The translations under genes were made by a program, and so were the position numbers. The notes beneath the pieces were generated by a model. The model was not told the DNA's origin, did not search any database, and worked only from the letters and a program-made list of their open reading frames with translations. This document shows positions 2,250 to 61,862 of a stretch of 64,000 nucleotides of DNA, in pieces; positions within the stretch are counted from its first letter, which is position 1, and the number at the start of each line of letters is the position of its first letter. Origin of the DNA: Octopus vulgaris (taxonomy: Eukaryota); assembly GCA_951406725.2 (NCBI GenBank), contig OX597815.1, positions 102,610,001 to 102,674,000 on the forward strand, given 5' to 3'.

Positions 2250-2760
2250 ATATATGTATTAATATAAGCAGCTAGGCACAATATAATAACATAAAAGAAA
2301 GATTTTATCGTCACTGATTGTGAGTGAGGGTGTCAAAGCACCTATATTGCAAGAGATAAGAATTAAAATCTCTTAATGCTGTATGAAACGTGTAATATAT
2401 ATATATATATATACACACAAACAGTGGAGGTTAACCGCCCTATGAGCGTTTCTAGGATCCCTAGACTACACTAAGTCTGCCTATCAGTTGCAGGATCGTC
2501 AGCATTGACTACCCAAACGCTCAGTGGCTTGGCTAAATCCGGCTGTCAGTATATATATTTTTATCATAAACATTTATGGCTGATTTAGTGAAATGCTAAT
2601 CCGTGTATTAAAAACTAATAGAAACAGCTTGACGTAATATAATACCATAAAGTAAAAATTCTTATCGTCACTAATTGTGACTGAAGGAGCCGAAGCACCT
2701 GTATTACAAGAAATAAGAATTGAAAACCCTTAATACTGCAAGAAACGAGCAATATATAAA
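2250..2760. repeat. Diverged direct repeat pair (~2250-2400 and ~2600-2757) flanking a GC-richer structured insert
   Basis: Shared blocks aatataata(a/c)cataaa, ttatcgtcact(g/a)attgtga, aagcacct(a/g)tatt(g/a)caaga(g/a)ataagaatt and gaaacg(t/a)g(t/c)aatatat occur in both copies about 357 bp apart. Confidence 0.8.
2443..2523 (-). ncRNA. Degenerate type III hammerhead-like motif
   Basis: Minus strand reads UGAGCGU-U ... CUGACGA ... GAA-ACGCUCA, giving a 7-bp stem III. Stems I and II are imperfect, so probably a relic. Confidence 0.35.
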
Positions 2761-2879
2761 CATTGACAGGGGGTGTATATATATATATATGCCTACACTA
2801 TATATATCTCAAGCGTTAAACTAATACATCTGCTTATTCCTACACCTGTCAACGTCTTTTGTTTTCTGTAAATTGAAAC

Positions 2880-3170
2880 TATATATATGTATGTATGTAT
2901 GTATGTATGTATGTATGTATGTATGTATGTATGTATGTATGTATGTATGTATGTATGTATGTATGTATGTATGTATGTATGTATGTATGTATGTATGCAT
3001 GTATGTATATACGTATGTATGTATATGTGTGTGTGAGTGAGAGAGAGAGGGGAAAAGGAATTGACAGTTTTGTAAGGTGAATTCTACAGTTAAAGATATG
3101 ATTCTTTTCTTTACGTATTTTTGCTTTATATATGTGTACACACACACACACACACACACACACACACAAA
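2880..3170. repeat. (TATG)n, (TG)n, (GA)n and (CA)n microsatellites
   Basis: Direct reading. Confidence 0.95.
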
Positions 3171-5195
3171 CATAAAAGAATTGGTTAAATTGAATGTCCA
3201 TTGCAAAATGTTTGGAAAAATATGTGAATGATGTATATAATCAAAATTTCGTGATTAAATACTATATCTGTTTCTACTGCTTATGTACAAAGGTTATCAG
3301 TCACACAAAATATTACATAAGCTGTAGGTATTTAATTAATTTGAATGAACTAATTAAAGCATTTTATCAGAAACTAAAACTGAAATATCAAAATATTTAA
3401 TCCTTTTGGGGTTGAGAAAATAAGTTCCAGTTGATTACTGGTGTCGGTATAATCGACTTACTCTTCCTCCAAAATTTTTAGCCTTGTACCAAAATTTGGA
3501 AGCAATATTTCTGACAGAAGCATAAAGCTTCAAATACTATCGGTTATTACGCCTCCAATACTTGGTTGATATTTTACACTATTTATCCTAAGAAGCCAAT
3601 GCTAATTCAACGGATTTGAAATCATAATAGTCCTGACCGTATTGAACAACATATGAAGCTGCATCGTGAAAGTTGACTGACGGAGGGCAATAAATATTTC
3701 TGAAATACAAGGCCAGAATCTGGAGGGAGGATGTTAGTCGATACACTCAATTGTTATACTGAACGCGTATTTGAATAGCAGGCCTCGGCAAAACTGGAAC
3801 TCAAAAATATAAAGAACAATGACTAAATTCCACATTGTATTTTGTTGAATACTCTAACGATTCTACCAATCCACTTTTTAAATAGCAAATGCTTCTAGTT
3901 TTGACATAAGGTGAGTAATTTTGAGGGGCGTGGTTATTTGATTACATCGGCACCAGTATAATTATAAAATAAAGTGGTAGTTTATTTTATCGTTCCTGAA
4001 TAGATGAAAGTCAGAGATAACGTCTGTAAAATTAGGAGCATTTTGTACGACGCTCTAACAATTTCGAAAATTCATCTCCATTCTAGCAATGATAATAATA
4101 TCACTGCCAACATCTAATATTCCTATCTATCACCTAAAATTTCTCAGCGATATGAGAAATGTTGAAAGTAACCTCACCTGTCACCCACCAACAAATGTTT
4201 CATTATCGTGTTACTATCACAAGCAGCTGCAAGCATTAAACTACGAAAGGGACATTTTATTAAGCAATAAATAATTAAGGTAATTTGGATACCATTAGCT
4301 TGAAGTTTGCACCGTTATTAAGGCATTCGTTAATTGTGCGAATATATCAACGTTTAATGATTACCAAATAAACAGTTCTCTTGTGTCTTGTCAAACCTGG
4401 ATAAGTACCTCGTGTTAGTGGATATATTTAATATACTCTATGTGATATCTGTCAATTGTGATGTCCTCTAATTTCTGCTCATCTGCTTCGATACCTACTT
4501 TTCTCCCTTTAGATGATATTTTCTAATGTGGTTTCATATTGCATCATTTAGTCTATTTCTGTTATACCTTTAACTGCTACAACAACCGAACGCCGACGAC
4601 TACGTCAGAGAGAGAGAGAGAGAGAGAGAGAGAGGGGGAGAATCAAGAGAATGTGTGTGTGTGAGAGAAAGAGAGGGAGAGAAAAGGTGATTGCATAAAA
4701 GAGCCAAAGAAAGAATGAGATAAAGTGAAGTGAAAGAGTGACAGAGAGGTGTATAAGGGAGGCAAGAAGAATTGAAATCACCAAACTAAAGGGGAGACAG
4801 TGGAGAGATATAAATATGTAAAATGGAAATGGAAATGAAAGTTGCTACTTCTAATATATTTGTGACGACAAGTATGAACTAGATCTTCAGTAGACTGTTT
4901 TCCTATGACACACACAAGTTTGTTTCCGACCTAGAGAAGAAATCTCTAAGTGGTCACCCACCCTGGAATAAATAGTTGAAAATTATTTCTCGAATCACAC
5001 TTCAATGTCTTTATATATATATATATTAATATTTATCGCCGTACTAATATGGCAATCTTATAAATATAAGACTAAAGCTGTCGATGATTAGCTCCAAGAG
5101 GCCACCGCCTCAAGCTAGCTATTTGACACACAATCTGCGTCCATTATAGACTTTCGAACAGGGGAGGTCAGCCGCTTCATCCTGCTAGTCAGACA

Positions 5196-5238
5196 GCTGC
5201 AGACGCGTTTCAGGGTAGTTGCCATTTATCAATGCAGC
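5196..5238 (-). ncRNA. Minimal type I hammerhead ribozyme (U3-A8 core variant), minus-strand copy
   Basis: Exact reverse complement of 5633-5675. Confidence 0.75.
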
Positions 5239-59445: not shown

Positions 59446-59474
59446 ATATATATGTATATATATATATATATCTT

Positions 59475-59712
59475 ATCTATCTATCTATCTATCTATCTAT
59501 CTATCTATCTATCTATCTATTTATCTATCGAATTAAAAGCAGATTTGTGGCTGTAAACATCATTGATTGCGCGCACACACATAGTGCGCCTATATATATA
59601 TATATGTATATATGCGCACACTCACATGCACGCGCGGTCGATAATGTTTACAACCACGAATCTGCTTTTAATTCGATAGATAAATAGATAGATAGAAAGA
59701 TAGGTAGATAGA
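59475..59712. repeat. ~240-bp palindrome with (TATC)n/(GATA)n outer arms and a (TA)n centre
   Basis: ctatcgaattaaaagcagatttgtggctgtaaacat / atgtttacaaccacgaatctgcttttaattcgatag; inner gtgcgc..(TA)n..gcgcac. Confidence 0.88.
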
Positions 59713-60657
59713 AAGATGGTGTATTTGAACTTGTGTATGAGTATGTAACCCTTTCTGTCCAGTGTAAGTCTCCGAAATTCCACTCTCCGCCATAGGCTAA
59801 CGGGAGGCCTGAGCAAAAGAAGCTTGCACAATGTTATCGATACCTTAGTCATGTGATTGCAGACCGAACTATCTAAAGTAGTTCACGGTTTCACACTGCC
59901 AAGTGTATTATTTCTGAATGTGTAGATGATTAGATTTAGGCTAGGAATGTGTCTTTCTAAACAAAAAGCAACCTTTAATCAGCTAAGTTTCTGGTTGATA
60001 TACATTAGTATCACGCATAATACTGCACCTATTTTGAAATAAAGATTCTTAATTCGATCTCTGTCAGAAAATATGTAGGTAACAAGAAATAATTCACCGG
60101 CAGATGATCAGAGATTGAAGCGATCGAAATTAGTGTTCATAAAATTATTGCAAATGTGCGGGTAACACTCCAACGACTTGTATTAATATGTTAGACGTTG
60201 AAACATTTGTTTTCATTCATTAACTCCATCACCACTTTCCTTTAATACGACAGTATGCACTTGCCTATGTTTTACCTATGTACATTTACGCCAAGCTAAT
60301 CTCGTGTACATTTTTTGACAGGATCTTTGCAACTCTAGTAATTACCAGTATTTGTGCGAATATGGCATAATCTATTCAATGTTAATATGCCAAAGATATA
60401 CACATTAGCTTCACATTCGTAGACAATCGGCAATATTCATTGTACGTGCGTGTATATATGTGCGTAAGAGTATTAAATGTGTGTGCGTGTATGTAAACTT
60501 AAAACGGAATGCATGTTTGTATGTATGTATGTATGTATGTATGTATGTATGTATGTATGTATATATCTATCTATCTGTATATACAGACATATACATATAT
60601 ATTTAAAATAAAATATTTAATATATGTATATCTAATATATATATATATATATATATA

Positions 60658-61862
60658 TTGGTAAAAACGGTAAGATAACAAAAGAAAGAAAGAGACCTCA
60701 ATATTATGTAAATAGAGGGAATTTATCTATAAAATGATATGTTACAATTACTCAATAGTCAAGATAAAACTCTGAGTTTCAGATGCCGAAGTGGAAATCC
60801 ACAACAACATCTCTTCGGTTATCAGGCCATCTGAAAAACGCTATGAAAAAATACCGTTATATAAAGGGAAATTACTGTGTTATAATTCTGCTACTTATAT
60901 ATAAGAAGATTAAAAGTTCATAGTAATCACGTAAACATGGCTAGTCATACACTCACATGTGCGCTCGTGGACCACGTGCGTACTTATACGTCACTATGAA
61001 AACGTACACATCCTCACTCGCATTTTCGCCAAATATATAGGCATATATATACAAACTCATACACACACACGCGTACCGTAAAAGTTCATACATACGTCTA
61101 TATATGCACAAGCACAAGAAAAACCATAGTTAAAGGTAACAGAGAAAACATAAGGAAGTATGCAAAGCATAAAAACCACGTTCATATACGGACATGCCCT
61201 TATGCACTCATACATACACACGCCCATATATGTACATACCCGCACATGTTTATATACGCATACATACACACGCATATACAAAAAATGAATATACATATGC
61301 CCCCCCTCAAAAAACCCCCTAAAAATGGAAAAATACTAAGTAAAAACGTCTATATATATATATATACATTCTTATGCCCGCACACACACACACATCTAAA
61401 ACTGCCCACTCATACATATTGCCACACGTGTACAAATGAAACTATATACACGTCTATATAGGCACAGGAAAAAATGCAGGATAAAAGAGTAGAGAAAAAA
61501 TTATTATGTGTGAAAGTATAAAAATATATGAAATAATAAAAGGTATAATGAGATAAAAAACTTTTTGGGACATAATATAGAAAGCAAGTTCTATCTGTTT
61601 TCTTTAGGGGACCAAAAACGTAACAAAAATCTTGTCACATATGGGCATGATCCGAAAAGTTCTGTCCTTGAGTTTAGACATGTAGTAGGGTCTAAGCTGC
61701 TTTTCCAGATAAGCCATATCTCCATGTCGCAGTAATTTCCCTTTATATAACGGTATTTTTTCGTAGCGTTTTTCAGAAGAGATGGTGTCGTGGATTTCCA
61801 CTTCGGCATCTGAAACTCAGAGTTTTATCTTGACTATTGAGTAATTGTAACATATTATTTCA
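60658..61862. mobile_element. Fold-back element 4 with hammerhead-like motif, between (TA)n tracts
   Basis: Inverted arms ~60729-60877 and 61730-61862. (TA)n at 60635-60657 and from 61862. Confidence 0.75.
60763..60823 (-). ncRNA. Variant type I hammerhead-like motif (C4); the plus-arm copy at 61776-61829 lacks the stem I 5' strand and part of the core
   Basis: Minus strand: GAUAA-CCGAAGA-GAUGUUG...GUGGA UU UCCAC...CGGCAUC-U-GAA-ACUCAGAGU-U-UUAUC. Confidence 0.55.

Follow-up and report, generated by a model that had tools for sequence, protein, structure and literature searches.

Hammerhead-bearing repeats in the window

We analyzed a stretch of Octopus vulgaris DNA (64,000 nucleotides; assembly GCA_951406725.2, contig OX597815.1, forward-strand positions 102,610,001–102,674,000; hereafter the window, with positions counted from its first letter), a microsatellite-rich 64 kb of a 2.8-Gb, 227-contig genome. 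About ten repeats in the window bear hammerhead ribozyme motifs, with six intact insertions, close to the one per 10 kb that a first-pass annotation of the letters had put forward. That annotation listed type I folds at seven places, plus weaker relics. Its seven insertions from seven families stand, although 5196/5633 and 6104/6661 are each a single insertion with inverted arms, 60763 forms one insertion with a second arm near 61775, and a canonical motif at 49885 and one of minimal type at 46653 had been overlooked. The families are indeed unrelated to each other, with no pairwise BLAST match except between a relic at 2250–2760 and family E. The claim that none encodes protein failed: family G holds the end of a GIY-YIG coding region within the window, and families F and C run upstream, elsewhere in the genome, into coding sequence of Penelope-like elements (PLEs). 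Five of the seven named families have 900–4,000 candidate copies and one has 64; all copy figures are rough, as only the best 40 candidates per site were scored in the genome search, and locus-level statements rest on the 25–30 best-matching loci per family.

The hammerhead motifs exceed chance expectation

A strict type I descriptor matched the window three times and 40 shuffles not at all. A relaxed descriptor, allowing core covariation, C at position 4 and one bulge (core positions follow hammerhead numbering), gave eight matches at a score of at least 22 (5639+/5232−, 6667+/6160−, 31760−, 49892+, 51925+ and 60818−), whereas 15 local dinucleotide shuffles averaged 0.33. Because the relaxed descriptor had been tuned after inspection of the window, the unbiased test is an unselected sample of 60 ten-kb stretches at round coordinates on 30 contigs (600 kb), in which 28 matches scored at least 26, compared with 0, 0 and 0 in three shuffles; the plain CUGANGA core occurs in 21 of them. 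A separate scan for minimal hammerheads found 10 further matches, versus 1, 0, 0 and 0 in shuffled sequence.

The fold was scored in 30/30 loci of family A, 28/30 of B and 16/30 of D, families E and I being judged by consensus, and all scored folds are of type I, in tandem or inverted units. The consensuses of families C and E are complete type I hammerheads even though their copies in the window are damaged (mismatches in helices I and III at 43505; the full fold in neither arm at 14411). The weak relic at 2442–2507 was scored by none of the descriptors. Within family B, helix III reads CATG in 16/30 loci and CGCG in 10/30, and position 7 of the core varies in family D, variation that is compatible with a ribozyme. 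The hammerhead motifs are real beyond chance.

Coding Penelope-like families

Family F (51704–51975, plus strand) is the 3′ pseudo-long terminal repeat (pLTR) stub of a coding PLE of Hydra type that is very young and has a unit of ~5.2 kb. Its hammerhead lies at 51919–51969, with a predicted cut after 51963, and its short 3′ end enters (TA)n at 51975. Copies are 99–100% identical and recur with a period of 5.2–5.4 kb, in the order hammerhead, tail, open reading frame (ORF) for reverse transcriptase (RT) plus GIY-YIG, and long untranslated region (UTR). Intact RT+GIY-YIG frames of 722 and 718 aa are present in loci L347 and L348, each with an F hammerhead just upstream. The ORF, which Pfam did not recognize, carries DKT, YRDD, CxCx5C, YIG, CxxC and CxH, with YRDD preceding YIG and RWR (K to R) at the RW[KR] position; it is without DKG or Cx2-5CxxC, CCHH being judged absent by eye.

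A one-base homopolymer frameshift (L199:4645) is common to 11 of 13 F loci checked, the youngest copies. A non-autonomous subfamily was considered and rejected, as short-read contigs have one extra base at this point (at all depth in X1 and X6, at part of it in X15 and X16); the extra base in independent contigs makes a systematic assembly error that hides intact copies the likely cause. Branch-point-like letters and an AG stand at the 5′ arm of helix I in F (window 51895–51925) and in the parents of family C (L352, L375). No upstream exon shared by short F, G or other copies, as expected of a 3′ splice site, was seen. In Penelope of D. virilis an intron ends at helix I (PMC4209133).

Family G (60660–61862, minus strand; 2,829 candidates) is a 5′-truncated coding Hydra-type PLE with a UTR of ~900 nt. 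The window retains its last ~50 GIY-YIG codons (61594–61743, 84% identity), a hammerhead at 60763–60823 with a C4 core and a GUU triplet, the long end at 60660, and an inverted plus-strand arm (~61730–61862) that ends at the short site. Three of 30 G loci extend upstream into GIY-YIG and RT sequence, in the order RT then endonuclease (EN). The Pfam match to GIY-YIG is below cut-off (E 0.004), and CxCx5C, CxxC and CxH were read from the translation; the RT pieces resemble Hydra-1_Obim in a comparison of reference proteins by eye.

Family C (14262–14470, both strands) is an inverted stub of an older coding Hydra-like PLE, damaged in both arms, with cores at 14405–14411 (minus) and 14416–14422 (plus); its full type I consensus has C at position 4. 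Three of 30 loci extend well upstream, where L375 and L376 share ~640 nt at 71%, and L375 carries a Hydra-type GIY-YIG relic ~1.2 kb upstream, in sense. Going by motifs rather than by tree placement, F and G are Hydra-clade PLEs and C is Hydra-like.

Further traces of Hydra-type PLEs in the window are a GIY-YIG relic of another element at 7175–7462 (plus strand; tblastn E 1e-14), separated from family A by a TA tract, a second GIY-YIG relic at 51112–51405 (plus strand; E 8e-14) and an RT fragment at 56995–57567 (minus strand; E 3e-11). Elsewhere, an intact 773-aa Neptune-like ORF with RVT_1 and GIY-YIG domains (L203:4352–6670, minus strand) sits between two inverted F arms, and a 94% identical copy occurs in the random stretch L221.

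Non-coding tandem units

Family B (5025–5900, both strands; 2,928 candidates) is a 365-bp non-coding tandem unit inserted as inverted arms, the minus arm ending at the short site (5025) and the plus arm at the long site (5900). Its predicted hammerheads (5633–5675, plus strand, cut after 5669; 5196–5238, minus strand) have a U3-A8 core and a palindromic helix III. Family A (5909–7003, both strands; 1,976 candidates) is a ~566-bp non-coding tandem unit, likewise with inverted arms, inserted in the TA tract at B's end; its short end is at 5909 and its long end at 7003. Its hammerheads are predicted at 6661–6723 (plus strand, cut after 6717) and 6104–6166 (minus strand) and have a canonical core, CUGACGA with the cleavage triplet GUA, in 30/30 loci. 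The final ~150 nt of family A (window 6850–7000) are 10–30 times deeper than the remainder in public contigs, and the F UTR as well as random stretches contain relatives at 70–88%; the depth and the relatives together suggest that a larger, older related family has the same end.

Family D (31462–32037, minus strand) is one ~500-bp non-coding unit, preceded on the 5′ side by 76 bp of a partial tandem copy. Its hammerhead (31706–31767, predicted cut after 31712) lies upstream of an end in (TA)n at 31442–31461, and its 2,955 candidate copies are 83–91% identical. Family E (43443–43587, minus strand; 64 candidates at 74–87% identity) is represented by a truncated, damaged copy of a ~340-bp tandem unit, with the hammerhead at ~43506–43554 and a canonical one in the family consensus; degraded E-related sequence at 2250–2760 (minus strand), one relic or more, matches E loci at 68–80% outside the ribozyme. 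Family I (49828–50187, plus strand; 245 candidates at 69–80%), an old unit of ~380–430 bp missing from the first-pass annotation, has a canonical hammerhead at 49885–49944 with a predicted cut after 49937. A seven-unit hammerhead array of ~359-bp period (L205:2278–4542) consists of two inverted arms, of five and two units, with different end sites in TA tracts.

Tandem offsets are 563–572 in A, 359–366 in B, 481–520 in D and 339–342 in E (three offsets for E), and beyond the tail the sequence of these four families re-enters its own unit, not an ORF. By tblastn, none of the 115 top-ranked A, B, D and E loci continues in sense into a PLE ORF; an ORF match lies nearby in 11 of the 115, in each case as a separate element. 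Public records listed as carrying these sequences are contigs only, none RNA, and those on family A cannot show strand, ends or level.

These data bear on the view that every family is the pLTR or 3′ UTR of a coding PLE, the short tandem units being deletion products of unsampled parents, a case that the first-pass annotation had named as lowering the novelty. We judge this unlikely. It is true of C, F and G, so that three of the seven named families are stubs of coding PLEs rather than the non-coding mini-elements first described, whereas five families do look non-autonomous. Family C had itself seemed non-coding until a second search gave longer copies, and 24 of 57 Xenopus retrozyme families matched Repbase transposable elements, 21 of 22 matched elements being PLEs, at pLTR ends (10.64898/2026.07.22.740005). 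Families A, B, D and E, on the other hand, close on themselves at fixed unit lengths, their tail leads back into the unit, no linked ORF was found at their 115 loci, and the best A copies are 98–99% identical, so that it is the short unit itself that is amplifying. From their sequence organization, A, B, D, E and I are likely animal retrozymes moved in trans by a Penelope-like protein.

Insertion in TA tracts and integration footprints

Every site in the window has a TA or TA-rich tract 12–250 nt downstream, as the first-pass annotation had noticed. Tracts of (TA)≥5 are frequent (65 in the window; ~1 per 650 bp in the 60 sampled stretches), and the anchoring was also assessed on unselected hits with a score of at least 24: such a tract lies within 150 nt downstream in 16/34 and upstream in 6/34 (null mean 7.0; the highest of 200 draws was 13). 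Widening the distance to 300 nt gives 21 versus 19 and the bias is nearly gone, since many copies are short or inverted. Mapped 3′ ends are flanked by TA in 31/37 cases for A, 34/43 for B, 24/42 for D, 35/36 for F and 39/41 for G; the figure for C is only 10/38, the alignments there stopping before the element end. In this mapping, duplicates were dropped by identical flanks, which loses some distinct A insertions with pure TA flanks. Where L200 and L201 have a plain TA run, L199 has an inverted F copy of ~190 bp that TA flanks at either side. For F at least, comparison of the empty and filled sites argues that (TA)n is a pre-existing target and was not added as a tail.

Each family has two fixed 3′ ends, 57–95 nt apart, downstream of the ribozyme. 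Inverted insertions combine one short and one long end in 10/12 cases for A, 11/16 for B, 9/9 for F and 8/10 for G; in the remainder an arm ends elsewhere, and L035 alone has both arms at the same site, as a palindrome that includes the flanks. For A and F, where the query was neutral to the ends, 19/19 classifiable pairs differ (2e-6 under independent arm choice). The count for family C (11/12) is circular, its loci having been chosen with an inverted query, and was not used. The paired ends fit two internal start sites together with two-strand cutting, to judge by the insertion boundaries, and they refine the published remark that a tail is often found at one end only. A shared tail hairpin as a general protein-binding signal was rejected (2/28 downstream windows, both F, and 1/28 upstream). 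A gathering of A 5′ ends at the cleavage site is not supported: it was seen at two of eight distinct loci (a lower bound), both explicable by TA microhomology.

The arms of inverted pairs are 99–100% complementary, as they would be if the pairs were assembly fold-backs and the tandem units DNA satellites with chance hammerhead-like motifs, and folding energies lend the motifs weak support (see below). Such an origin nevertheless seems hardly credible to us. Shuffled sequence gave no match at a score of 26 or more, the arms stop at two distinct sites that are particular to the family and have unique flanks, an empty as well as a filled site is present, helix III takes the form of either of two palindromes in B, and the core of D is variable at position 7.

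The non-coding units could also be circular RNAs that cleave themselves, with the cut monomers serving as chief template for a non-Hydra RT (Neptune, Naiad or long interspersed nuclear element (LINE)), a scenario that we regard as quite improbable. The pattern of two ends and inversion recurs in F and G and is typical of PLEs, which counts against a LINE; a Neptune or Naiad driver is still conceivable. Circular RNAs are known for retrozymes of coral, mussel and axolotl (PMC7229834), the genome contains a Neptune-like ORF, and Naiads prefer (TA)n; of eight A 5′ ends that abut TA close to the ribozyme, two coincide with the cleavage site, but both share TA microhomology and the other six end elsewhere.

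Proposed mechanism and its weighing

We consider it likely that the sites are of two kinds: 3′ stubs of PLEs that are coding and Hydra-type (C, F, G), and tandem units with hammerheads but no coding capacity (A, B, D, E, I), the latter being probable retrozymes that a Penelope-like RT/GIY-YIG protein would copy in trans. This agrees with part of what the first-pass annotation had proposed, namely many independent hammerhead families, (TA)n targeting, a PLE footprint and an intact RT/GIY-YIG ORF in the genome. A sequence of steps can be suggested. Intact Hydra-type RT-EN ORFs exist in the genome, and pre-existing (TA)n, the target in the case of F, would be nicked by the endonuclease. The two fixed 3′ ends likely mark two internal RT starts, as in the PLE of the anole. 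A single integration uses both ends, one per arm, and so leaves head-to-head inverted copies, a pattern that a protein dimer priming on both strands might produce. The template is likely uncleaved or multimeric/circular RNA, as both copies and arrays continue across the cleavage site. In F and C, short copies begin at the ribozyme 5′ edge and not at the cut, perhaps because a transcript starts or the RT stops there. Finally, the hammerheads would trim multimeric transcripts to unit length, probably as dimers via the palindromic helix III.

Several observations weigh against this interpretation. Self-cleavage is a prediction from the motifs, and one of nine predicted Xenopus retrozymes was cleaved in vitro (10.64898/2026.07.22.740005). 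Minimum free energy (MFE) folds of ten window motifs are mostly no stabler than shuffles (z 0.0 to −2.1), and several of the ten lack the three-way junction. Rfam at gathering score found no hammerhead in the window, or in five sampled stretches that hold descriptor matches (114 kb in all); at E≤5 none was among the window matches listed (150 of 231). The 5′ flanks of non-inverted copies are TA in only 15/43 rows, against a background of 4.9%, although the rows include some inverted or ORF-continuing copies that were misclassified. Eleven inverted loci of the old family D include two short+long and two long+long pairs. BLAST of the A, B, D, E and I units against the three coding PLEs compared (F, G and the Neptune-like element) gave no sequence link except an A-like insert within the F UTR, and beyond the 25–30 best-matching loci these five families could have rarer copies that are linked to an ORF. 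A Neptune-like PLE is also present in the genome (L203). The 5′ ends count on both sides. In favour, they fall within −8 to +6 of C3 in 8/12 unselected F arms and within −5 to +12 in 26/30 C loci; against, the F arms derive from only about five insertions, the C loci were sampled by similarity to a stub, and the pile-up is missing in family K (described below) and diffuse in G. Where they do gather at the ribozyme 5′ edge, a transcript start or RT stop would explain them.

Beyond the stub-and-retrozyme interpretation, a more ambitious picture is possible, although we lean against its holding in full. In it, the genome would contain ~100,000 hammerhead ribozymes from at least a dozen families that are unrelated to each other, which Rfam does not see and whose density is several times that of published animal counts, including retrozymes that lack a surviving pLTR parent and ride on a currently active Hydra-type protein. 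One event would prime at both internal starts, one per strand, and short copies would come from RNA that begins at the ribozyme 5′ edge, making the ribozyme a template boundary mark rather than a cutter. With a young F family holding intact RT-EN frames, a simple (TA)n target, thousands of dated footprints and several candidate non-autonomous riders, the system could address how PLEs make tandem and inverted copies and whether PLE proteins move retrozymes.

Density and core variants

The 60 sampled stretches contain 28 motifs in 18 clusters per 600 kb, or ~47 motifs/Mb. This extrapolates to ~84,000 insertions (Poisson 50,000–133,000) or 130,000 motifs, with a bootstrap range of 14–46 motifs per 600 kb. 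Published hammerhead counts reach 120,000 in axolotl (28 Gb), exceed 6,000 in coral and are ~5,000 in mussel (PMC7229834), and ~9,000 minimal hammerheads are given for Xenopus (PMC4209133); descriptors differ between these studies and ours, so that the comparison is indicative only. No report of such a density or of cephalopod retrozymes was found in the literature searched, which included few subscription papers and no Repbase. If the density holds, a large ribozyme load has been missed by standard Rfam annotation, and natural core variants (U3-A8, G3-C8, C4, U6) are open to assay.

Family K (46615–46790, plus strand), also missing from the first-pass annotation, is a very abundant repeat that is damaged in the window. 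Its minimal-hammerhead-like fold at ~46653–46687, with U at core position 6, was scored in 6/20 family loci. About 14 K insertions occur in the 600 kb, where a related C4 minimal family is also present. A short family with a swapped G3-C8 core (L225:6067/6081, L210:8285 and L241:4083; four motifs in 600 kb) has two 3′ ends, separated by ~60 nt, and starts at a defined 5′ position 7–30 nt upstream of the core. A literature search at the level of titles found no report of natural G3-C8 PLE ribozymes. At 58774–59375 in the window, two 84% identical repeats of ~175 bp lie 427 bp apart, each with a CUGAUGA half core; no matching second half core follows downstream, and these are possibly half cores of the Naiad type.

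Comparison with known elements

Hydra PLEs carry hammerheads and are almost all found in (TA)n, with Hydra-1_Obim of Octopus bimaculoides among them (Craig et al. 2021, PMC8557442), and 235 Rfam hammerhead-1 loci have been reported in giant squid. The first-pass annotation knew of no description for cephalopods; that such elements are undescribed there is not supported. The clade is marked by RWK, DKT instead of DKG, CxCx5C, CxxC, CxH and the lack of Cx2-5CxxC, and generally by a length below 3 kb, which is a tendency (PMC8557442). Families F and G share with it the C-terminal GIY-YIG, RW[KR] and DKT (both read in F), CxCx5C, CxxC, CxH, a hammerhead in the pLTR, insertion in (TA)n, and tandem or inverted copies with a tail at one end. 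They differ in that the F unit, at ~5.2 kb with a long microsatellite-rich UTR, exceeds the general length, in that tails are 57–95 nt rather than 30–40 nt, and in that F is both high-copy and very young. None of three peptide motifs of F/G was found in the PMC8557442 supplement, which would mean that F and G are not the family listed there.

Retrozymes have been described as probable dependants of PLEs (Cervera and de la Pena 2020, PMC7229834; Li et al. 2026, bioRxiv 10.64898/2026.07.22.740005). Circular RNAs were shown for those of coral, mussel and axolotl in the former, whereas the latter samples vertebrates, three insects and one anthozoan. Like the non-LTR (long terminal repeat) retrozymes of animals, the units described here are non-coding, tandem and a few hundred bp long, with one type I hammerhead each and PLEs alongside. 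Unlike them, they are mostly dispersed monomers to short arrays in (TA)n, show PLE-type inversions and two fixed ends, and have no pLTR parent among the three PLEs compared. Plant LTR retrozymes, with type III folds in their LTRs, contrast with the type I folds in tandem or inverted units found here.

Minimal and variant PLE hammerheads, solo and on opposite strands, including a U3-A8 core, were reported by Cervera and de la Pena (2014, PMC4209133). The octopus motifs resemble the reported ones in the palindromic helix III, the bulge at the start of helix II, U3-A8 covariation, and the predominance of solo motifs or opposite-strand pairs 100–700 bp apart; besides these, they include G3-C8 and C4 cores and the U6 minimal form. 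In Poseidon PAc of Anolis there are two internal RT starts and an AT-rich two-strand cut, and uncleaved RNA is the main substrate (Frangieh et al. 2024, PMC11167929). Our elements would parallel that system in having two internal RT starts that define the tail, an AT-rich target, both strands cut and extended, and cleavage that is dispensable, but they belong to another clade, couple both sites within a single inverted insertion, and end at TA-like element letters. Naiads, which also prefer (TA)n, have an N-terminal EN and no canonical hammerhead, in contrast to the C-terminal EN and full hammerheads of F and G. Each ingredient is in print; hence these are known kinds of element.

Other repeats in the window

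A direct-repeat search of the window returned only families that are microsatellite noise. Four LINE relics (RVT_1, zf-RVT) at 19634–26850, each flanked by (AAT)n tracts, are presumably of the microsatellite-targeting Dong/R4 type. A deleted LINE with an AP-endonuclease remnant lies between (TATC)n tracts at 46990–49440 and is, we assume, L1/Tx1-like. At 63116–63716, 123-nt inverted repeats 355 nt apart surround an apparent transposase relic, which we take from its appearance to be mariner-type, and a similar relic occurs at ~50400–50950. An element with terminal inverted repeats at 15190–15640 contains a (CCTAAC)n array at 15506–15540.

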